From: an uncultured Candidatus Saccharibacteria bacterium
GTDB taxonomy: Bacteria; Patescibacteriota; Minisyncoccia; Phycocordibacterales; UBA918
Reading direction: 5' to 3'
Assembly: GCA_964402035.1 (NCBI GenBank)
Contig: CAYOAM010000003.1
Coordinates: forward strand, 228,657-263,958
Length of the DNA stretch: 35,302 nucleotides
In this document: positions 5,292 to 22,247 of the stretch, one piece after another
How positions within the stretch are numbered: position 1 is the stretch's first letter
How the letters are laid out: every line of letters begins with the position of its first letter
Program-made: the position numbers and the translations under genes
The notes under the pieces: model-generated
Told to the model about the DNA's origin: nothing
The model's input: the letters and a program-made list of their open reading frames with translations, nothing else
Database searches by the model: none

Positions 5292-8228
5292 ATGTGGGTG
5301 AGTCATATATATGACGATCTGCCGATAAGTTTTCTCTCAAAATACGTCTTATCCAGTGCGGGCCTCGTGCTCGCATTTTTGTTTCTCGCACCGCACGTCG
5401 CACATGCAGCATTTACGCTCTCATGGGGAACGGTTGTCTATGATGAAGATTCAGGAGACATCATCTTTGATGATCGTATCTATCTTCCAGATGGAGCTGA
5501 AACAGAACTACCACTTGGGGTTACCAAAAAGATTGGCATTGGATTTACAGGAACGCTCTATGATGTCTACGGAAAACTTTATCAGATGAATGGTAGCGAG
5601 CGAGAGTTTGTAGAAACATTAAACCAAGAGGAGGATTTTGCATGGGATGTGTATGGCACCTACGAACTCGATGTCTTTGATGCGGGAGCCCCGGTTCTAT
5701 CATCTAGGGATTGGCATCGTGGGTTTTGGCAGCGTTTGTTGGGCAGTATCGCACGTGCAGATACCGGTGACTATTTGGGCACCATACGCTTTACCATAAA
5801 ACCTATACAGGGACCAAACCAAGCGCCCACTCTTTCTTTTGTGCCAGATAGCGGGGGAGTCCTACCAGAAAAGGGAATACCTAAGACAACGGAGTTTGTA
5901 TTTCGTGTCGTCTACACTGATCTTGATAACGATGCACCACAAGGAGCGCATCTACATGTAGATGGAAAAGAGATAGCACTTGAAACAGAGACAGGTACGG
6001 GAGATTTGCATGATGATGTTTTTAGCAACGGCGAAGTACTTAGGGCAGCATATGTTTTTGACGATCGTGGGACGTACCCATTTTCCTTTGAAGCTGGCGA
6101 TGGGACAGCCACGACTACCTTAGCGGGAGATGTTGCTATAAGTGTCGGATTCTCTAACGTCGCATTTTTCCCCGGCGTCCAAGCTTCCTATCTCTATAAA
6201 GAAGGGGCACTCACTGAAGATCAGGTGTGGACTCCGAATGCGACCCTAGGCACTGCAAATGACGTAGAAAACCTCGCGTTGAATCCTGACGGATCGAGTG
6301 TTGACGATATTTACACAAGGGAAAATGAAATAGTAAGAACAGCGTACGAGTCACTCTTGGGAGGGGTGCCCGTTTATGCTGGTTTTGATACGTACATGGA
6401 TTCTCTTGTTTCAGGCGGAACTATAGAGTCGTGGAAACCAATCGTGTATGATTGGCGACTCGATTTTGACACTATTCTAGAGTCAGGAAAACAAGATGGA
6501 GAAAAGATATCGTATCTGAACGCCACAAGCACCCCCTATATCTACCAAGAGTTGAAGCGGCTGGCAGAAAATTCTGAGAGTGGCAAGGTCTCTATCATTG
6601 CCCATTCAAACGGCGGCTTGCTCGCGAAAAAATTACTCAAAAAACTTGAAGATGAAAACGATCCACTTCTTTCGAAGATTGACCTTCTGGTGTTCGTAGC
6701 TGTCCCACAACTCGGCACACCAAAAACGCTCTTTCCGTTGCTTCATGGCACAGAAAATCCTCTGGGAAATTTTCCGACCTTTCTTCAGGATCGTGTATGG
6801 CGCGAGACAGTACGGCACTCACCTGCTGCGTATAACTTGTTGCCCTCAAGTGAATATTTAGAAAGTGGCGAAGTCATGATTCATTTTGATAGTTCACTAA
6901 ACAATCTTACGGAGACTATACAAAAACGCGATGCTGAGGGGTATATAGGGACGACGCTTTCTCCCGTACTTGATTACCGTACGCACTATGGGGAAGACGT
7001 GCGTGGTTTTAATGAACTGCATGACTTCCTTAAAGGAAAAGAGGGAAGACTGGGTCCTGCGTACGATGATGTGGTACATCCCAGTGTGCTACCGACTTCT
7101 TTTCTTGCTTCTGCAGAAAATGTGCATGATGAGATCGACCCATGGGAATCACCTGACACAGACCATGATGGTGAACCTGATATAAAGGTTGTGCAAATAG
7201 TGGGTGTTGGTCTTGGTACCATTGCGGGGGTTGAGTTCATAGCTAAGAAACATCTCTTTGGTTGTACTGCTGATTCGTCGACATGCTCGACGGATCTTTA
7301 CGGAGTTCAAGCAGTACCCATGTATTCTTCCTTAGGAGATGAAACGGTGACAGCGCGAAGCGCTGCCGCTATGGATGTAGAGACATACTACGTTGATTTG
7401 AGAGAATACAATGATGATGGTGTCGATCCCGATGGGGTTAAAATCCGAAAACATTTTAATATTATGGCTTTAGAGCCCGTTACCTCCATTTTGGAAAGTC
7501 TTGTGTATGGTGCGATAGTTGATGAAGATGAGTATATTTCAAAAGTTATACCTGATACTGGCGACATCACTGTTATAGAAGCGCATTCACCCGTTGATCT
7601 CGCCATTCAAGATTCTTTTGGGAACATCTCCAGTCTCAAAAAAGATACTTCGTCTGGTGTTTCATATTTTGAAGAAAATGTGCCCAATACAACGTATTTC
7701 AAAGTAGGCTCAAGCACTTTTATGACGGTAGATAGTTCCTCACCGCACACTGTTTTGCTTGATGGTACTGGAGAAGGTACCTTCACACTTGTCATTAAAA
7801 AATATACCAATGATGCACTGAAATCGAAAACTACTTTCAGCGAGGTGCCTGTTACTGGTTCCCTGCAAGGAAGCGTTGTGTTACCTATCCTTGGTAAACC
7901 GATAACCCTTTCAATCGACAAAGATGGTAACGGCATCGTAGATACGACGGTACAAGCTGATGGAACAACAAAAACGTATCAAGAACTCTTTGTCAATTTC
8001 AGAAGCATTGTGTCGCAGTCCACAATGGATAAAAACATCAAGGTCGCGCTTACAGCGCTCTCTCGACTTGGAGAAAAAGCGATACAAGAAAAAAGGATAC
8101 TTGTGGGGCGCGTGACCATTATTGCGATGGAGCTTTTTATTAAACAAAAGACAGGGAAGGGTATACAGTCTGTAGATGCTATAAGATTGCTTGCTATACT
8201 TAAAGAGATAAAGACAATACTTAAATAA
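5292..8228 (+). CDS. large exported alpha/beta-hydrolase (LCAT/PGAP1-like lipase/acyltransferase) with accessory beta domains
   Basis: Signal-like segment ending AHA; FFPGVQASYL, YDWRL, nucleophile elbow IIAHSNGGL, VPQLGTP, GDETV, H in KHFNI; C-terminal HSPVDL domain and DKDGNG Ca-loop. Confidence 0.85.
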   Translation: MWVSHIYDDLPISFLSKYVLSSAGLVLAFLFLAPHVAHAAFTLSWGTVVYDEDSGDIIFDDRIYLPDGAETELPLGVTKKIGIGFTGTLYDVYGKLYQMNGSEREFVETLNQEEDFAWDVYGTYELDVFDAGAPVLSSRDWHRGFWQRLLGSIARADTGDYLGTIRFTIKPIQGPNQAPTLSFVPDSGGVLPEKGIPKTTEFVFRVVYTDLDNDAPQGAHLHVDGKEIALETETGTGDLHDDVFSNGEVLRAAYVFDDRGTYPFSFEAGDGTATTTLAGDVAISVGFSNVAFFPGVQASYLYKEGALTEDQVWTPNATLGTANDVENLALNPDGSSVDDIYTRENEIVRTAYESLLGGVPVYAGFDTYMDSLVSGGTIESWKPIVYDWRLDFDTILESGKQDGEKISYLNATSTPYIYQELKRLAENSESGKVSIIAHSNGGLLAKKLLKKLEDENDPLLSKIDLLVFVAVPQLGTPKTLFPLLHGTENPLGNFPTFLQDRVWRETVRHSPAAYNLLPSSEYLESGEVMIHFDSSLNNLTETIQKRDAEGYIGTTLSPVLDYRTHYGEDVRGFNELHDFLKGKEGRLGPAYDDVVHPSVLPTSFLASAENVHDEIDPWESPDTDHDGEPDIKVVQIVGVGLGTIAGVEFIAKKHLFGCTADSSTCSTDLYGVQAVPMYSSLGDETVTARSAAAMDVETYYVDLREYNDDGVDPDGVKIRKHFNIMALEPVTSILESLVYGAIVDEDEYISKVIPDTGDITVIEAHSPVDLAIQDSFGNISSLKKDTSSGVSYFEENVPNTTYFKVGSSTFMTVDSSSPHTVLLDGTGEGTFTLVIKKYTNDALKSKTTFSEVPVTGSLQGSVVLPILGKPITLSIDKDGNGIVDTTVQADGTTKTYQELFVNFRSIVSQSTMDKNIKVALTALSRLGEKAIQEKRILVGRVTIIAMELFIKQKTGKGIQSVDAIRLLAILKEIKTILK

Positions 8229-15740: not shown

Positions 15741-16949
15741 TCACTTATCTAGCTTTTCAAGAAGGTTACGTGCCTGATGTGCATCACGTGGTGATATGTC
15801 GATTGCTTTTTGATAGCTCGTTATGGCGTCCTTACTGCGACCAAGTTTCTCGTATATTTTTCCAAGGATAATGTAGGGTTGATTGTATACACCGTGAAAT
15901 TCTGGCGCATTAAAATTGAACATAAAACCAGGGAAAGATCCTGAAGGTTTGTCGAGGTCTTTATTTAATGAGACGGCTTTTTCAGCATAAGTGAGTGCGT
16001 CTTGGTGCTTCCCTAGTTCATAGAGTGCTGTCGCGAGAAAGAAATATGTATTCACTTGCACAAAACGGGGGAAGTCGGGTGATGTAAATGTCGAATCCAC
16101 TGCAACTGTTTTGAGTGTCCCTAAGGCTTCTTCGTAGTGCCCTCTTAGTACCAAATCAACCCCTGTAAGATATTTTTCTATAAGCTTTTGTGACACCTCC
16201 ATTGAGGTGGTTCGAGGGGGGTACATTTTTTGAGACTTTTCACTAAAGAAAGATGGGGCGGGATTGCGTAATGGTTCCACGACAATGAATGGCAACGGCC
16301 TCCCTGCCTCAATACTGAAGGCAGCATAGATATCTTTAAAGGACATAGAAAAATTATTTCCATACCAGTAGTGATGCAAGATCACATTTTTATGTTCCGT
16401 ATCAATTCCTATAAACACAACCACCGTGTCGGATTGCTTTTCAGGGGATATCTGACTACTTGGCGGCATGAAAAGTAGTAAGGGGACGTTGCTTTTTGGA
16501 CTAAGGAAGCGTGCGGTTTCCTCAAGGGTCATGGGCATTACGTGGGCGCTCATTTTCCCAATCTGAGAAAAATAGTCAACGAGTGATTCGGACGTCGTGC
16601 GATTAGTTCGCGGGTTGGGGCGTACATGAAGTAGGCTGCTAGGGGTTATTGCTGTATTCTCCCAGTATTCTCCCAACATTAGGATTGCCGCAGCAATATC
16701 GCTAATAAATAAATCATCTGCAGTACTCTTCGTATAAAACCCCTTGTATGGGACACCGGGAATTATGTAATTCGTCTTTTTTTCTGCAGTGACAGTGTCC
16801 AATGTTTGTATTGGTTGGGTATCTTTCTTCAAAATGAAAAAAAAGATACCTGAAATACTTATAATAAAAAAAAGAATAAGGAGTAAAATTTTTTTCTGTA
16901 TAGTAAGCACGATATTAATTTTACGTGATAAAATATTACGTATTGCCAT
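15741..16949 (-). CDS. membrane-anchored C39-like (degenerate) peptidase domain plus TPR repeats
   Basis: N-terminal TM; IPGVPY, AAAILMLGEYW, VPLLL, VVVFIGID, ILHHYWYG..FSMSF match a C39_2-like scaffold; C-terminal TPRs (LATALYELGKHQDALTYAEKA; LGKIYEKLGRSKDAITSYQKAIDISP). Confidence 0.72.
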   Translation of the reverse strand: MAIRNILSRKINIVLTIQKKILLLILFFIISISGIFFFILKKDTQPIQTLDTVTAEKKTNYIIPGVPYKGFYTKSTADDLFISDIAAAILMLGEYWENTAITPSSLLHVRPNPRTNRTTSESLVDYFSQIGKMSAHVMPMTLEETARFLSPKSNVPLLLFMPPSSQISPEKQSDTVVVFIGIDTEHKNVILHHYWYGNNFSMSFKDIYAAFSIEAGRPLPFIVVEPLRNPAPSFFSEKSQKMYPPRTTSMEVSQKLIEKYLTGVDLVLRGHYEEALGTLKTVAVDSTFTSPDFPRFVQVNTYFFLATALYELGKHQDALTYAEKAVSLNKDLDKPSGSFPGFMFNFNAPEFHGVYNQPYIILGKIYEKLGRSKDAITSYQKAIDISPRDAHQARNLLEKLDK

Positions 16950-17235
16950 CAGAAAGTGAGCCGGAACTTGCAGCGCATTGTGCGGCGTCGCCTATACATC
17001 CTGTTCCGCAAGCTGTTGCAGGTGGTCCATCTCGATCGATACCTAGAATTACAGAATCGGGTGGTGTATCAGCGTGTGCGTTATAACCAAATAGTCCAAC
17101 GGCCGCGTCGCTTAAGCCATCCAGATTTTCATCATGCGACGTTCCCCAGAATCGAAATCCTGAAAGGAAAAATATGCTGACTAGAAAAAAACCACGGAGT
17201 AGTAAATTTCGAGCCTTCTTTTTTATGTAAACCAT
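16936..17235 (-). CDS. candidate RiPP precursor peptide with N-terminal signal/TM segment and Cys/Ser/Thr/Gly-rich C-terminus
   Basis: Basic N-terminus plus hydrophobic helix, AHA-D site, C-terminus PPATACGTGCIGDAAQCAASSGSLSDGNT; TGTATAAT upstream; divergent from ycaO; overlaps the next gene by 14 bp. Confidence 0.65.
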   Translation of the reverse strand: MVYIKKKARNLLLRGFFLVSIFFLSGFRFWGTSHDENLDGLSDAAVGLFGYNAHADTPPDSVILGIDRDGPPATACGTGCIGDAAQCAASSGSLSDGNT

Positions 17236-17288
17236 ATCGCATTTATTATACACCTTCTATTTTGCATAAGGTAGTGTATGATCTGCAC
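17236..17288. promoter_or_regulatory. back-to-back divergent promoters for the precursor and ycaO operons
   Basis: Minus-strand TATAAT at 17245-17250, 9 nt before the precursor ATG; plus-strand TATGAT at 17277-17282, 6 nt before the ycaO ATG; no SD. Confidence 0.55.
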
Positions 17289-18797
17289 ATGTATGCGGAT
17301 GAAGAATTAGATATTTTTAAAGACGTTTCCCTTCAGGAAGTCGTTTCAGCAAAGAAATTTAAATTCCTGGGTATTAAGGGATATATGGTTCGGATTGCTT
17401 TGTCTGTCCTGTACAAGTTCGTTGGAAAGAGCGTATTTTTTAAAGTACCAGAAAATCTTTCATGGATGGAACCCGAAGCTGTTACGTTCTTACCAATACT
17501 CGGTGTACTTAAAAAGCAAGGTTTCTTTAATAATGGTACACATATTATTACTAAACATGGCGGCTATGCTGATGAACCATACGCGCATGTCTATTTTGTG
17601 GGCGCTCACGGAGGAGGAGTTGATTTTTTTAGTCAAAAAAAATCGATCTGGAAAGCACTTGCTGAACATGTGGAGAGATATCTCTGGAAAGATACTGATC
17701 TTTCGCATCTTATTTCAGACAGTGTTTACGCATCGTATCAGGATCTTTGTCGGAGTCGGCAGGTGCTCAATATAGATCGATTGGCTGGTTTTTCTTCTGT
17801 GCAGCGAGAGAAGATTTCATCACTTCAGTATAGTCATATGTCAAAATTTCGGTGGGTGAGAGGATATGGAAACCACGGAGAGATATGGGTGCCCTTGCAG
17901 TTAGTGAGTGTTAAACATTTTGCACGATATGTACAAACACCACTGCAAGAAAAAAGTGTTCCTGATGCTGAGCCGCTTTTGCGGTCGGTGATTACAACAG
18001 GTCTCGCTACAGGACCGTCCCTTGAAGAAGCGGTTGTAAAAGGTGTGTTGGAGGTGATAGAACGTGATGCTTTTATGGTATCCTATCTCAATAGCATTAA
18101 CTGCCCAAGAGTTGATCTTCAAGATGCTCGTATTCGAGACAAGGATATCGAGGATGTTCTCCGTCCTTTTGATAGGTATAATCTAGAAGTGGTTGTGGTG
18201 AGATTAGTCACCGATTTCTCTTCCGTGTATGTATACGCTGCAATTATCATTGATCGCACAGGAAAAGGACCAGCGGTAACGGTTGGTGCAAAAGCCGATT
18301 TTTCTCCCAAAGCGGCCTTAATTGGGTCAATAAGTGAAAGTTTAGGTGTTCGTTATGCAGCTAAACAGACATTTCATAAAGTTCTTGATCCTGATGTGCG
18401 AAAAATGGATAGGGATGAGCGAGTAGTATATTGGGCCAGCTCAACCGAAATGATTGAAAAAATATCCTTTTTCTTTAAAGGAAAGCAAGAGCAAATAAAT
18501 TTTTTACCAGCCGAGGATGATCGTTTGGGTGATATTCAGTATTATAAAAAGAAAATGTCGCATCTTATGTGTGAGATTGAACGGAAGGGTTATGTTTGCG
18601 CGTATGTAGATTTAACACCAAATTGTATGCAATCATTGGGTTTGCATACAGCTTTTGTGATTATTCCTGAGCTACAACCACTTTATCTCAAAGAAGCCAT
18701 TCCATACTTGGGTGGCTCTCGTCTAAGGGAGGTGCCAATTCGGTGTGGGTATGAGTCAGCTTCAGTCTTAAATACAATTCCGCACCCATTCCCGTAG
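17289..18797 (+). CDS. ycaO: YcaO-family ATP-dependent cyclodehydratase
   Basis: KALAEHVERY, TTGLATGPSLEEAVVKGVLEVIERDAF, IIPELQPL and C-terminal PHPFP (PxPxP-type tail). Confidence 0.95.
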   Translation: MYADEELDIFKDVSLQEVVSAKKFKFLGIKGYMVRIALSVLYKFVGKSVFFKVPENLSWMEPEAVTFLPILGVLKKQGFFNNGTHIITKHGGYADEPYAHVYFVGAHGGGVDFFSQKKSIWKALAEHVERYLWKDTDLSHLISDSVYASYQDLCRSRQVLNIDRLAGFSSVQREKISSLQYSHMSKFRWVRGYGNHGEIWVPLQLVSVKHFARYVQTPLQEKSVPDAEPLLRSVITTGLATGPSLEEAVVKGVLEVIERDAFMVSYLNSINCPRVDLQDARIRDKDIEDVLRPFDRYNLEVVVVRLVTDFSSVYVYAAIIIDRTGKGPAVTVGAKADFSPKAALIGSISESLGVRYAAKQTFHKVLDPDVRKMDRDERVVYWASSTEMIEKISFFFKGKQEQINFLPAEDDRLGDIQYYKKKMSHLMCEIERKGYVCAYVDLTPNCMQSLGLHTAFVIIPELQPLYLKEAIPYLGGSRLREVPIRCGYESASVLNTIPHPFP

Positions 18798-18800
18798 CAT

Positions 18801-19574
18801 ATGATTTTTGGCCACTTAAGTAAATTATTTCATAAAAAAACCACTGGTCTTTTGGCGCCAGGAATTATTCCTGCTGACAGCAGATTGTGGCCAAAGGAGT
18901 GGGTTACTGTTGAGTACAAGACGTATCCGCGCATGGATCGTGTTGCTCTTTCTGCGCCAACCCCATTTTCAAATACGTATGAAAACATGTTGCGTACCCG
19001 TGCATCACTGCGTGATTTTGATCCTGCAAAAAGTCTCACACATAAAGAAGTCTCAACGTTGTTGTATTGGACAGTGGGTGAGGCGAACTTTTCAAACGCC
19101 CTAGATAATGATAGGAATCGTCGTTCTGCTCAAAAACGCTTTTATCCTTCGGGTGGGGGACGATATCCTGTCGAAACGTATATATCCATTCGGAATAGCA
19201 GAGAGATCGCATCGGGTGTGTACCACTACAACATTAAAGAGCATTCTTTAGAGCGGCTTTTAGGACCAGAAGGTGATCTCTTGGTCAAAAATGCTCTCAC
19301 CTATCCATGGTCAAAGGACGCACCATTTGTGCTCATGTTTACCGCAGTATGGAATCGTAATTTTATGAAGTATCGTGATTTTGGGTACAGAATTGTCCTT
19401 CTGGAAACAGGTCATGTTGCACAAAACGCAGTCATATCTGCCACAGGGCTGGGCCTTGGTTGTTGTACGCTTGCGGGCTTTAGAACTGAAGAAATGGCAA
19501 AAATACTTGATATAGATATGATGATTGAGGCGCCAACATACGTTATTGCCATGGGGCATCCAAAAATGGGGTAG
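18801..19574 (+). CDS. SagB/ThcOx-family FMN-dependent azoline dehydrogenase
   Basis: RASLRDF, RFYPSGGGRYPVETY, GVYHYN, MKYRDFGYR (Lys-Tyr motif), LETGHVAQN; 3 nt after the ycaO stop. Confidence 0.93.
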   Translation: MIFGHLSKLFHKKTTGLLAPGIIPADSRLWPKEWVTVEYKTYPRMDRVALSAPTPFSNTYENMLRTRASLRDFDPAKSLTHKEVSTLLYWTVGEANFSNALDNDRNRRSAQKRFYPSGGGRYPVETYISIRNSREIASGVYHYNIKEHSLERLLGPEGDLLVKNALTYPWSKDAPFVLMFTAVWNRNFMKYRDFGYRIVLLETGHVAQNAVISATGLGLGCCTLAGFRTEEMAKILDIDMMIEAPTYVIAMGHPKMG

Positions 19575-19606
19575 CCTCTCGCTTGGTGTTGTATGATGAA
19601 TGTATC

Positions 19607-20395
19607 ATGATGCAAAAACGCTGGTTGTATGGGGTGGCAACAATAGTTATCCTCGTGCTTGGTGTGTATATGGCAAGGGAAAATGTTTCACAATATCTTG
19701 TTGCGCACGCTTCCCCACGCACAGCATCGGTGATTGGTTTTGATAAACCGGCAGTATTTTTTTCCATAGGGAATTATTATTTTGGTGGTGGGATGTACGA
19801 TGTTGCGCGAGCTAAAGAAGCTTACAAAAAAGCGCTTGAACTTTCTGGCGATAGTCCGCAGAGCGATATCCACTATCAGCTTGCGCGAATCTACTTTATA
19901 GAAGGAGATTTTTATAATGCCCTCTACGAAATCGATAAGGAGATCGTACGATTCCCCGAGAATAAGCGTTCGTATTATGTGCGAGGTCTCATTTATGGTT
20001 TTATGAGACAGTATGAAAAAGCAGAAGATGATTTTCTTACTTTTATCGCGTGGAAAAAAAATGGTTGGGCTGCCTACAATGATCTTGCATGGATCTACTT
20101 TATGGAGGGTGAATTTGAGGGGGTTCGTGTAGCAGCCGAAGGAGGACTGAGATATCATCCAGACAATCCATGGCTTAATAACACGTTGGGGGTCGCGTTG
20201 CTCAATCTTGGTTTTAAAGAAGAGGCCCTGCGACGATTCCTTAATGCACAGGTATCTTTTGGTCATTTAACGAAAGAGGACTGGGGTAAGGCATATCCGG
20301 GAAATGATCCCCGTAGCTATGATCGAGGATTTGCATCAATGGGGGAACAAATTAAAAAAAATATTGCATTGACGGGTGATGCTCAGGTGGATTAA
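19607..20395 (+). CDS. membrane-anchored TPR protein
   Basis: N-terminal TM; repeats HYQLARIYFIEGDF..AL, YYVRGLIYGF..QYEKA, AYNDLAWIYF, NTLGVALLNLG..EEA. Confidence 0.88.
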   Translation: MMQKRWLYGVATIVILVLGVYMARENVSQYLVAHASPRTASVIGFDKPAVFFSIGNYYFGGGMYDVARAKEAYKKALELSGDSPQSDIHYQLARIYFIEGDFYNALYEIDKEIVRFPENKRSYYVRGLIYGFMRQYEKAEDDFLTFIAWKKNGWAAYNDLAWIYFMEGEFEGVRVAAEGGLRYHPDNPWLNNTLGVALLNLGFKEEALRRFLNAQVSFGHLTKEDWGKAYPGNDPRSYDRGFASMGEQIKKNIALTGDAQVD

Positions 20396-20435
20396 TGGGG
20401 TATTTTTTTTTGATCAGGTGATATTATGGATATAC

Positions 20436-22247
20436 ATGTTACAGATCCTCATGCGTTATGGTGCCAGGCCACTATTCATTGCGTCTGCCGGTGTACTGTT
20501 TTTTGTTGGATCTGTGGTATTTGTTGGTAGTGCGAATGTTGAGCATCTTGCCTCAGTTGAGGTCGGTTATGCGGCATTTTCCCCGAAAGGGGAAGTGGGC
20601 GGTAGTATTTTTCCTGCGTCGTGCGAATCTATTCCAGAATTTGAACATAATCTTGGGGAATGTGATGTGTCTACAACTCTAAGTTTTGAGGTGCAATTGG
20701 ACACCGCGCCAAATATTCTTTTTACGGGTGAGGTGGCGAATGTTCATTGGAAAGTCACCACTGGCGTTGGTTGGTTGCCACCAACAATAAATGATGAGAT
20801 TGCTCTTTTTAGGGTTGGTACAAGTGATGCGTCGCAATTAGATTATTTCAAAAATACTGTACCAGACACAGAAAGAACTGTGCCTGTAACAATAGTGCAA
20901 CCAGCCGGTAATTATGAGTTTCGTTATTTCTACAATGATGCAGGTGTACTGAAGCGTGTCGCAACGAGCAACCAGTTTACGGTGGGGAATTCTCGTATTG
21001 ATCTTGTATCGACCAATCTTGCCATGTCTGGTGGCGGTACCGTGATCACCATCGGTGCTCCCGCAGTCACCTTTACGGCAGATGTAAAAAACATCGGCAC
21101 CGCTGCAGCCACCACTTTCGACGACCAATTTTTATATGCGTATGTGACGGGGGGTGTAGTTGGTACTTTTTATCCCATCACTCCTGATATTTCTCATTTA
21201 AGTTTGGGGCCAAATGCTACTGAGGTTGATACATCCGGATCTTTTAGTCCATTAACTCCCGGGACGATAGTCGTGCGCCACTATGTGGATGCACATTCTG
21301 CCGTTGCCGAAGCAAACGAGGTGGACAATTTTTCAGAAAAGACCTTTACCGTGAGAGATACACTTGCGGTAACGTGTTCGGTAGCCGGATCACCAATCAT
21401 AAAGGGAGATTCTGCAGTTTGGACAGCAACACTTTCGGTTACGGGCGCTCCAAACTATACATACGAGTGGTCTGGTACGGATGGGTTTAGTGATACTAAT
21501 GTTGTGCCGGGAACTTCAAATACACAGTCGCACACGTACAATGTCCCTGGGACCAAGACTGCATCTGTGCGAGTCACTGATAGTGCAGGTGAAACCACTG
21601 GCTGGGTGGCATGCTCCAATAGTCTGACGGTCAATAATCCGCCGACTCCCGTTGCAAATATTGAAGCGAGAGTGACAGGTGGCCCATGGACTGGTGGAAC
21701 TCTCTATATTGTTGATGGGCAGGAAATTGAGTTACGCTGGAATTCGGTGAATGCTTCTGAATGCGCAGGTACAAACTTTTCAACAGGCGCAGCGCCAAAC
21801 GGTTTTGGTCAAACAGTGGGTGCGGGTGGTGTAGTTGAGCCCGGTCCAGGCTTGTCAACCCCTTATTCAGTAACGTGTCACAACGGTGCACCTCCTCCTC
21901 AGGATACGGATACTGTGACGGTAAATAAAGCACTAGTGGGAGTTGGTGGAGCAGCATCAATCAGAGCGATTCCAAGCCGCGTTCGTACTAATCAGTCTAC
22001 GGTCATAGATGGGACGGTCAATGCACATACTGGGTGTGTTATTACGGGACGCGCTATTGATCCAAGTAATCTTGATGGGGATGGAGATGCTGATACGCTT
22101 GATTTGACTACTTTGGGTATTGTTGCGGGGTATGGTCCGTATACAACAGGGCCAATAGTAGGCACCACTGCATATACACTTTCGTGCACATCCGGTGGTA
22201 CCGGTACAGCTATTGTTCGAGCACTCCCTACTTTTGAAGAGATTTAA
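20436..22247 (+). CDS. exported CARDB/PKD-like Ig-fold surface protein (paralog 1)
   Basis: N-terminal TM/signal; CARDB-type DL...VKNIG...VD....VAEANEVDN; PKD-like YTYEWSGTDG...YNVPGTKTASV; Thr/Gly/Val rich; ends VRALPTFEEI. Confidence 0.8.
   Translation: MLQILMRYGARPLFIASAGVLFFVGSVVFVGSANVEHLASVEVGYAAFSPKGEVGGSIFPASCESIPEFEHNLGECDVSTTLSFEVQLDTAPNILFTGEVANVHWKVTTGVGWLPPTINDEIALFRVGTSDASQLDYFKNTVPDTERTVPVTIVQPAGNYEFRYFYNDAGVLKRVATSNQFTVGNSRIDLVSTNLAMSGGGTVITIGAPAVTFTADVKNIGTAAATTFDDQFLYAYVTGGVVGTFYPITPDISHLSLGPNATEVDTSGSFSPLTPGTIVVRHYVDAHSAVAEANEVDNFSEKTFTVRDTLAVTCSVAGSPIIKGDSAVWTATLSVTGAPNYTYEWSGTDGFSDTNVVPGTSNTQSHTYNVPGTKTASVRVTDSAGETTGWVACSNSLTVNNPPTPVANIEARVTGGPWTGGTLYIVDGQEIELRWNSVNASECAGTNFSTGAAPNGFGQTVGAGGVVEPGPGLSTPYSVTCHNGAPPPQDTDTVTVNKALVGVGGAASIRAIPSRVRTNQSTVIDGTVNAHTGCVITGRAIDPSNLDGDGDADTLDLTTLGIVAGYGPYTTGPIVGTTAYTLSCTSGGTGTAIVRALPTFEEI

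Follow-up and report, generated by a model that had tools for sequence, protein, structure and literature searches.

The YcaO locus and its small divergent gene

The stretch of DNA analysed here, which we call the window, comprises 35,302 nucleotides (nt) of contig CAYOAM010000003.1 (positions 228,657 to 263,958 of the forward strand; GenBank assembly GCA_964402035.1) from an uncultured Candidatus Saccharibacteria bacterium, and lies on contig C3 of a 99% complete genome of 1.03 Mb in 6 contigs. Our subject is a minus-strand open reading frame (ORF) of 99 codons, a candidate precursor of a ribosomally synthesized, post-translationally modified peptide (RiPP), which adjoins the sole YcaO gene of this genome in a divergent, back-to-back arrangement with a gap of 26-53 nt. 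Four genes diverge from it on the plus strand, coding for the YcaO protein, a SagB-type dehydrogenase, a TPR protein and a CARDB/PKD surface protein, while a gene for a membrane-anchored protein of 402 amino acids (aa) follows on its own strand. The parts of the candidate precursor gene are:

16936..17235, minus strand: predicted precursor gene, 99 codons plus a TAA stop (ORF list; starts of relatives in leader alignments)
17209..17235, minus strand: basic n-region, residues 1-9, with four K/R and no acidic residue (ORF translation, charge count)
17146..17208, minus strand: hydrophobic helix, residues 10-30 (about 21), of signal-anchor or transmembrane length (hydropathy)
17080..17145, minus strand: acidic spacer, residues 31-52, with four D/E and no K/R, and L48-F49 near its end (charge count, position profile)
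17062..17079, minus strand: AHA/DTP block, residues 53-58 (A53-H54-A55, D56-T57-P58) (family alignments)
16939..17070, minus strand: putative core, residues 56-99 (translation, alignment)

A preliminary description of this DNA had proposed a 99-aa protein with a basic start, a hydrophobic helix, an acidic spacer, an AHA site and a 44-residue tail holding three Cys, five Ser and four Thr. Read from ATG 17235 the protein is the same letter for letter, and every one of these parts is present; the tail further holds seven Gly and six Asp, with Cys, Ser and Thr together making up 12 of its 44 residues. The Kyte-Doolittle hydropathy of the helix reaches a mean of 1.74 over the best 19 residues and 2.05 over the best 17. 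The AHA site had been placed unusually far, about 25 residues, from the helix: the distance is indeed large, and measured from the helix end it amounts to 22 residues.

A conserved family of precursor-like proteins

The YcaO protein has a patchy distribution: 10 of 101 close relatives encode a homolog, as do 36 of 401 genomes from the order. For comparison we took 27 YcaO-related loci with their flanks. A word-based homolog search with the 99-aa protein retrieved the identical protein only, and a six-frame search of the 101 relatives with the whole protein gave just weak, low-complexity matches. The flanks of the YcaO genes were also examined with a heuristic that is blind to the AHA/DTP motif and selects ORFs of at most 320 aa that combine a hydrophobic 17-mer within residues 1-70 with a window of 30 residues consisting to at least 60% of G/C/S/T/D/N. 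Nearly all the ORFs that it picked beside YcaO share a basic start, a helix, a spacer, an xxAD motif and a Gly/Cys/Ser/Asp-rich tail. In these relatives the motif takes the forms AHAD, AYAD, AKAD, ANAD, AFAD, VHAD, THAD and TSAD, usually followed by (V/T/I)-P.

When the heuristic is combined with motif and profile searches, 19 of the 27 loci have a member with an [ASTV]xA[DE] site, two have a variant (VYAA, VSAG), two an atypical form (L022, L063) and four none; the same precursor architecture is thus found beside YcaO in 21 loci, plus the two atypical ones. Among the four without a precursor, L060 and L070 are entire short contigs and L077 stops about 1.8 kb past YcaO. Two loci, L059 and L069, encode two precursor copies each, with differing cores. 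L076, which has no family-type precursor, encodes beside YcaO/SagB a 146-aa ORF (7586-8026) with eight consecutive Cys followed by hydrophobic segments, which may be a different kind of substrate.

A profile built from 23 leaders was compared with 1.84 billion representative proteins and gave 44 matches at E <= 1e-3. In all 43 matches that have a single aligned stretch, this begins within the first 18 residues; one match of 1,272 aa without such a stretch was set aside, and the 42 matches inspected show the same pattern. They are mostly 64-130 residues long, with three of about 230-250. Pfam and NCBIfam hold no model for the family as judged from 22 scanned members, the exceptions being Hint/intein models in fused forms and one weak bacteriocin-like match (E 0.0016).

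The division into leader and core is sharp across 54 unique members. Counted up to the Ala at position -1, the leader has a median length of 50 residues (range 45-67); the median distance between the best hydrophobic window and the site, the spacer, is 23 residues (range 13-38). Position +1 is D/E in 51 of the 54 and position +3 is Pro in 34. At least one core Cys is present in 51 members and at least two in 44, such that Cys makes up 8.5% of cores against 0.1% of leaders; the corresponding values are 27.7% and 8.5% for Gly, and 12.5% and 2.5% for Asp. The site pattern mispicked a few sites; in two sequences, for instance, it took a preceding SSAD in place of AHAD. The n-regions of the 51 motif-bearing members average 3.3 K/R and 0.14 D/E, all 51 being net positive and 49 more positive than their spacer, and 50 of the 51 have a 19-residue hydropathy of at least 1.6. 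Position -3 is A in 39, V in 7, T in 3 and S in 2, with the qualification that the search pattern constrains -3, -1 and +1 (-3 only to A/S/T/V; -1 only to Ala), and bulky or charged residues stand at -2 (H in 25, Y in 10, K in 5). Hydrophobic residues occupy positions -8, -7 and -6 in 73%, 57% and 51% of the members (mostly L/F, L/F and V/I). Together, these positions define a block spanning -9 to +3, S-Φ-Φ-Φ-(N/P)-(T/V)-A-x-A-D-(V/T)-P, with N or P at -5, T or V at -4 and A-(H/Y/K)-A-D-(V/T/I)-P thereafter.

The homolog alignments thus bear out the suggestion of a conserved leader with an AxAD site before a variable core: the leader spans about 50 residues and the tail is hypervariable. Likewise, the signal-anchor-like front and the AxA-D site, which had been described for the window protein, are family-wide and not specific to it. 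The absence of homologs, or of Cys/Ser/Thr enrichment in them, had been named as what would speak against the precursor; homologs were found, with cores in which Cys, Gly, Ser and Asp abound. On these comparisons we recognize a conserved, unnamed precursor family with kinship to the linear azol(in)e-containing peptides (LAPs) or thiazole/oxazole-modified microcins (TOMMs). They also bear on whether the window ORF might be a chance open frame and not a gene. Such a frame would fit the word-based search, which found only the identical protein, but the architecture is conserved across the 54 unique proteins, the combination of motif, helix and Cys is unique in the genome, and the stop codon (16936-16938) overlaps the ATG (16949) of the next same-strand gene by 14 nt, an arrangement of the translational-coupling type; we regard a chance frame as extremely improbable.

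The standing of the window copy within the family calls for separate consideration, as several observations weigh against it. A leader profile built without the window protein gives it only 10.8 bits and an E of 0.4, which makes it third among the 16,052 six-frame ORFs of the genome, and even in a profile that includes it the protein falls near the bottom of the list (E 7.5e-4); by sequence similarity alone its membership is not significant. Its core is atypical, with only three Cys, 16 residues that are not Gly-rich between the motif and the first Cys, and a lower Gly/Cys content overall than is common in the family. Moreover, the 27 loci were picked by YcaO similarity, and the kin among them are not independent. 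The window copy nevertheless has AHADTP in exactly the form found in L026, L074 and L061, shares a C-G-T-G-C element of its core with the L026 relative, and has L48-F49 at positions -8/-7 in agreement with the conserved block. Its membership rests on the AHADTP motif, the C-G-T-G-C element, and its architecture and position beside YcaO, and on this basis we classify it as a somewhat divergent member of the family.

An alternative is that the ORF codes for a small low-complexity surface protein, secreted or anchored in the membrane, that only happens to lie beside YcaO, the true precursor being elsewhere or too small to see. The weak leave-one-out score, the few Cys of the window copy, the three of 54 members without core Cys and the many neighbouring genes in these genomes that also begin with a membrane helix could be accommodated in this way. 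However, the adjacency to YcaO is tight and recurrent (21-23 of 27 loci), the duplicated copies in L059 and L069 have different cores, Cys is restricted to the tail, and no alternative candidate was found in the window or the genome. The relaxed motif [ASTV]xA[DE][VTAIFY]P occurs 37 times among the 16,052 six-frame ORFs; two of these 37 occurrences have a membrane-type segment within 60 residues upstream, and only the precursor ORF has tail Cys as well. Searches for the combination of motif, helix and Cys found no other precursor candidate in the window or the genome. We hence consider a bystander surface protein very unlikely and hold, with considerable confidence, that the ORF is the real precursor of the YcaO/SagB pair. 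The idea that A-x-A-D-x-P is a general export motif of this organism was rejected, as the sole other helix-preceded ORF looks signal-peptidase-type and its match seems incidental.

Several members depart from the basic architecture. In L024 (5397-6146), L064 (12299-13051), L069 (5474-6277 and 6366-7064) and L075 (7018-8007) a Hint/intein-type domain (Pfam PT-HINT, Vint, Intein_splicing) comes right after the Cys-rich core. Protein P0045 has, beyond its Hint domain, another stretch rich in Cys and Gly that starts with Ser; this arrangement resembles an intein and could join two halves of the core by splicing. The other Hint-fused members have no nucleophile after the Hint domain, which suggests C-terminal self-cleavage. 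Long Tyr/Ser/Gln repeats, of the type Y-S-Q-S-S-Y-Y or Y-Y-Q-G-Y-Y-Q, separate the A-x-A-D motif from the end rich in Gly and Cys in several cores, and such repeats are also present in two neighbouring proteins of 285-305 aa; the cases concerned are L072 7641-7952, L075 7018-8007, L063 5229-7066, P0016, P0027 and P0030. In L061 (7051-7842 and 6133-7032) and L022 (7203-8822), leader and motif are fused to a C-terminal domain of about 180 residues outside known families; the 539-aa protein of L022 consists of two leader-domain units, in the second of which ASADTPPP enters the domain with no Cys-rich core between. We considered SVILGIDRDG, which follows the motif in the window copy, as a remnant of this C-terminal domain and rejected it on account of a different order of elements.

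Proposed modification, export and cleavage of the candidate precursor

The genes that bear most directly on the fate of the peptide are:

17262..18797, plus strand: YcaO cyclodehydratase, 511 aa from TTG (Pfam PF02624, E 4.5e-40)
18801..19574, plus strand: SagB-type dehydrogenase using flavin mononucleotide (FMN), 257 aa (TIGR03605, 128.8 bits with a cut-off of 78.4; Pfam Nitroreductase)
15741..16949, minus strand: 402-aa membrane-anchored protein with an N-terminal helix, a papain/C39-like middle domain without Cys and C-terminal TPR repeats (Pfam, alignment of homologs, model)

The closest solved relatives of the YcaO protein are MusD, TruD and LynD (McbD is also listed), with the match extending over the YcaO domain only; to the SagD-type model TIGR03604 it scores 187.7 bits, below the cut-off of 219.25. 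Its alignment retains the acidic motifs ExxER and ExxERD and ends in PHPFP; such acidic motifs and a Pro-rich C-terminus mark the azoline-forming YcaOs. A SagB homolog is detected by BLASTP in 22 of the 27 related loci. As YcaO needs ATP and SagB needs FMN, both modifying enzymes are placed in the cytoplasm.

How these enzymes would recognize the leader is less evident. No ThiF/E1-type partner was matched by Pfam or NCBIfam in the 35 window ORFs or, by Pfam, in the 204 ORFs scanned out of 250 that measure 140 aa or more and lie no further than about 5 kb from YcaO in the 27 loci, though very divergent partners could escape such searches; the 46 left out are the YcaO ORFs and the already identified SagB, TPR and precursor ORFs. 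The YcaO protein has an N-terminal extension of about 120 residues, modelled over the first 122 residues as three helices followed by three strands at a low confidence (pLDDT 60.6), with which Foldseek found no match at E <= 0.001. No separate partner with a RiPP recognition element (RRE) was found, and the low-confidence model speaks neither for nor against an RRE in the extension itself. These negatives count to some extent against our proposal. A prediction of the complex between YcaO and precursor residues 32-99 scored 0.00, which amounts to no answer and counts neither way.

The following route would reconcile the architecture of the precursor with the cytoplasmic chemistry. The short protein would be completed before co-translational insertion; since 99 residues should leave the ribosome before the signal-recognition route acts efficiently, modification can precede export. 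The YcaO protein and the dehydrogenase would dock at the conserved block that immediately precedes the core and, with ATP and FMN, form thiazol(in)es and oxazol(in)es from the Cys, and perhaps the Ser/Thr, of the tail. The charge pattern, with a positive N-terminus and an acidic spacer and core, predicts an N-in/C-out topology and would drive insertion in this orientation via the general Sec/YidC machinery. A cut after the small-x-small site Ala53-x-Ala55 and before Asp56, most simply by signal peptidase I, would then release an acidic, azole-bearing 44-mer outside the cell, where the co-translated, Cys-less C39-like/TPR protein may bind it or hand it over rather than cleave it. A linear azol(in)e-type (TOMM/LAP) precursor that is modified, exported and cut is the best explanation of the observations as a whole, and one that we moderately favour; for the full chain of modification, export and cleavage after Ala55 by signal peptidase I itself, the chances are roughly even.

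The gene content fits the proposal that a general pathway replaces a dedicated protease and transporter, which the preliminary description had put forward. In the same 204 ORFs, an ABC_tran domain is encoded within about 5 kb of YcaO in only one of the 27 loci (L065), and a trypsin-like peptidase likewise in one (L074); neither is encoded by any of the 35 ORFs scanned in the window. Contig C1 of the genome codes for a type I signal peptidase (S26, PF10502; 150 bits). Two further frames could be considered as processing-enzyme candidates: positions 135096-136670 of contig C1, presumably a second signal peptidase of the SipW-like kind, and positions 5370-5792 of contig C6, with a C39-family peptidase domain in a Cys context (39.4 bits). 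Signal peptidase I requires small residues at -3 and -1, and accepts those that the family has at -3 (A more often than V, then T and S) as well as bulky residues at -2. Such small residues are present in the window copy (A53, A55) and in 51 of the 54 members, and the residues at -3 and -2 fit this enzyme as far as -3 was free to vary in the search pattern; the common Pro or Asn at -5 is also in keeping with a cleavage-site pattern. Sec signal peptides on RiPP precursors have been documented for the bufferins, where they were termed highly unusual (PMC12452194). Sec export and cleavage of the precursor are plausible and have this precedent in another RiPP class.

Three features speak against a plain signal peptide. 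The helix, of about 21 residues, is of anchor length; established sites of signal peptidase I lie 3-7 residues after an h-region of 7-15 residues, whereas that of the window copy lies 22 residues past the helix, so that the classical spacing rule does not hold; and conservation at -9 to -6 and +1 to +3 goes beyond what the enzyme needs and hints at a specific partner. The earlier caveat that the AHA block may be a recognition motif gains in sharpness from the median spacer of 23 residues and from this conservation, which suggests that the block may be, or also be, a docking motif. Taken to its end, this would make the peptide a YcaO/SagB substrate that is never cleaved, with the helix as a lasting anchor, the A-x-A-D-x-P block and the hydrophobic triad as a docking sequence only, and the tail tethered on the surface, where it could serve for instance in host-cell contact or metal binding. 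The anchor length of the helix and its distance from the site favour this, as does the width of the block from -9 to +3, which is typical of enzyme recognition sequences; with no E1/RRE protein found, some other contact between leader and enzyme must exist; and the same front end is fused to large extracytoplasmic-looking domains in L061 (263 aa) and L022 (539 aa). On the other hand, the -3/-2 residues follow the signal-peptidase pattern and not that of a generic hydrophobic docking site, and the Hint-domain variants suggest processing of core ends. We judge a permanently anchored peptide unlikely.

The 402-aa protein encoded immediately downstream raises the question of a dedicated protease. 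Its relatives are few: a word search found three among 5.8 billion proteins, and homologs were detected in four of the 27 loci by BLASTP plus one weaker case, those named being L021, L061, L062 and L026 (the weaker one). As in the window, the gene directly downstream of the precursor, on its strand, codes for the homolog in L026, L061 and L062; in L021 the homolog is divergent. The C39-like domain that had been ascribed to this protein is supported by its homologs, of which that of L021 matches Peptidase_C39_2 (PF13529) at 28 bits with a cut-off of 24, and that of L061 matches Peptidase_C70 (PF12385) at 19.6 bits with a cut-off of 19; L062 falls below the latter cut-off at 17.9 bits, and the window protein itself has no Pfam match for a C39-type domain even at E <= 10. 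Both structure searches with its model (pLDDT 71.5) gave lists filled by TPR proteins and concern its TPR part rather than the middle domain. As an active peptidase the domain fares less well: the window protein has not a single Cys in its 402 residues, which makes an active cysteine protease unlikely, and in the alignment of homologs neither a Cys nor a His is invariant. From the charges flanking its helix, the domain is predicted to face outward. We read the protein as a putative substrate-binding pseudo-peptidase with a TPR module. The HlyB-type C39-like domain, which has a papain/C39-type fold without the nucleophile, is thought to bind, not cut, the secreted substrate. In contrast to it, the window domain, whose fold is deduced from the Pfam matches of its homologs, has no ABC transporter fused to it; its fusion partners are a membrane helix and TPR repeats, and its predicted location is outside.

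Export followed by a cut at the block by such a dedicated protease, for which the C39-like/TPR protein and other membrane proteins encoded in the cluster are candidates, in place of signal peptidase I would be in line with the 14-nt overlap of the 402-aa gene with the precursor stop, the position of its homologs directly downstream of the precursor in three more loci, their Peptidase_C39_2 and Peptidase_C70 matches, and conservation past -3/-1 that suits a specific protease; a published cluster of the Candidate Phyla Radiation (CPR), as described in the accessible text, also includes a 'peptidase' (PMC7298704). The lack of Cys in the window protein and of any Cys or all-member His conserved in the alignment stands against it, as does the occurrence of the 402-aa type in just four of the 27 loci and, more weakly, L026, whereas the motif is family-wide. 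Cleavage by a dedicated enzyme of the cluster is, in our estimation, distinctly unlikely.

Comparison with known systems places the family beside, and partly outside, the classical ones. In the known TOMM/LAP systems the leader is cytoplasmic and non-hydrophobic, an E1-like/RRE partner and a dedicated protease take part, and an ABC exporter is usually present. With microcin B17 (McbA + McbBCD), streptolysin S and plantazolicin the window system would share a YcaO protein and an FMN dehydrogenase acting on a Gly-rich Cys/Ser core, and a conserved leader before a variable core. It differs from the microcin B17-type systems in its signal-anchor-like leader, in having no detected E1-like gene or ABC exporter, in a YcaO protein with just the N-terminal extension of about 120 residues, and in strongly acidic cores (Asp 12.5%). 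What goes beyond known LAP/TOMM systems, as far as gene content and motifs can tell, is the signal-anchor leader with an A-x-A-D-x-P block and no E1-like partner or dedicated exporter detected. No description of a signal-anchor leader on YcaO substrates was found in the open full-text literature, to which our search was confined, subscription journals being outside its scope.

YcaO/nitroreductase clusters in CPR bacteria were themselves published in 2020. Sharrar et al. (2020, mBio; PMC7298704) described a YcaO/nitroreductase/peptidase cluster with an 84-aa putative precursor in Microgenomates_ANG_785, and 110 similar clusters in 93 further CPR genomes, with the nitroreductase adjacent in 89. 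Compared by description and not by sequence, those clusters agree with the present one in that genes for a nitroreductase-type dehydrogenase and a small putative precursor adjoin YcaO, a gene described as a peptidase is included, and the hosts have tiny genomes. The accessible text of that paper does not mention the leader: 'signal peptide' and 'transmembrane' occur 0 times each, and no leader architecture, A-x-A-D-x-P block or missing E1 is described in it. With the bufferins/oxazolins, to go by the accessible part of their description (PMC12452194), the present family would share a Sec signal peptide as leader and the modification of Cys in the cytoplasm followed by export through the general pathway, an export that is here a proposal. 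The bufferins differ in their MNIO/DUF692 and DUF2063 partner chemistry (PMC12452194). The window family, for its part, combines a helix of anchor length with a site of the cleavage type some 23 residues further downstream. No Pfam match to MNIO (DUF692) or DUF2063 was found in the window.

More broadly, we tentatively put forward that bacteria of the CPR/Patescibacteria type have a RiPP class unlike all characterised azole peptides, in which a signal anchor and a 12-residue docking-and-cleavage block take the place of the classical leader and no E1/RRE, protease or exporter of its own is needed. Its acidic, thiazole-rich peptides would be brought to the surface by the general secretion machinery and met there by Cys-less C39-like/TPR proteins, with Hint domains trimming the core in some relatives or, in one case, perhaps splicing it. 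Genome mining for RiPPs presumes short cytoplasmic leaders, RRE-bearing partners and dedicated export, and a family that breaks all three is missed or mis-annotated. If the proposal is true, the general secretion pathway would for the first time be seen to serve a YcaO-type RiPP class; in the accessible text of PMC12452194, export of RiPPs by that pathway has so far been shown experimentally only for the MNIO-modified bufferins. It would also show an azoline-forming YcaO recognizing its substrate without an E1-like partner. Ultra-small, host-dependent bacteria would gain a defined secreted small-molecule product, and the peptides would be candidates for a part in mediating contact of the episymbionts with their hosts.

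Starts, promoters and neighbouring genes

The minus-strand frame of the precursor is open over 16936..17253, giving 105 aa from GTG 17253. The 99-aa version from ATG 17235 is preferred, since relatives in the leader alignments begin at the equivalent Met, just ahead of the basic stretch, and since a perfect TATAAT ends 9 nt upstream; no Shine-Dalgarno-like motif is present. The feature concerned is:

17245..17250, minus strand: -10-like hexamer TATAAT (sequence upstream of the ATG)

Among 23 family genes, 12 have a -10-like hexamer 5-11 nt ahead of the ATG, as against 51 of 228 control ORFs from the same loci, where the controls are first ATGs of long ORFs and the family genes are kin and not independent; a Shine-Dalgarno-like word occurs in one of the 23. 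A consensus promoter scan lists no promoter upstream of the precursor ORF, the TATAAT having no -35 match. These observations favour the ATG and a leaderless or near-leaderless precursor mRNA, but they are no more than suggestive. On the YcaO strand, TATGAT ends 6 nt before ATG 17289, from which the homologous YcaOs align; this is probably the YcaO start, and not TTG 17262, leaving a divergent control region of 53 nt. Both genes may thus be leaderless, with back-to-back promoters inside these 53 nt.

In L026 (4984-6530) the YcaO gene is broken into two overlapping ORFs of 206 and 309 aa by a frameshift or an assembly error, while the precursor and C39-like/TPR genes are intact. Other neighbours recur in the 27 loci and are absent from the window: a PQQ-like beta-propeller protein of about 550-580 aa (11 loci), an AMMECR1-domain protein of about 630 aa (six), a rhodanese (five), and also short-chain dehydrogenases, methyltransferases and Asp/Asn beta-hydroxylases or 2OG oxygenases. 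These extra enzymes suggest the existence of sub-types with additional tailoring.

Downstream of SagB, the window encodes a pair of genes of a type that is kept beside YcaO clusters, comprising a membrane-anchored TPR protein of about 270 aa and a surface protein:

19583..20395, plus strand: membrane-anchored TPR protein, 270 aa (Pfam; BLASTP homologs in 17 of 27 related loci)
20376..22247, plus strand: CARDB/PKD surface protein, 623 aa, ending in P-T-F-E-E-I (Pfam; BLASTP)

The CARDB/PKD gene is paired with the TPR gene in several loci and may be linked to the peptide system. This type of pair was also noted at L061 (1292-2830), L062 (1106-2700), L072 (77-1546), L025 (5775-7502), L067 (1082-3833), L063 (5229-7900) and L022 (10754-12707). 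Its surface protein has an N-terminal helix, a conserved S-P-x-G-x-x-G-G-x-x-I-P-A-S-C, Ig-like domains and a C-terminal P-x-F-(E/Q)-E-(F/I), an ending that, among ORFs of at least 150 aa in the genome of the window, occurs in the 623-aa protein alone. TPR clamps bind EEVD-type tails, and the acidic tail of a surface protein encoded beside a TPR gene resembles these, a likeness that we offer as an idea only.

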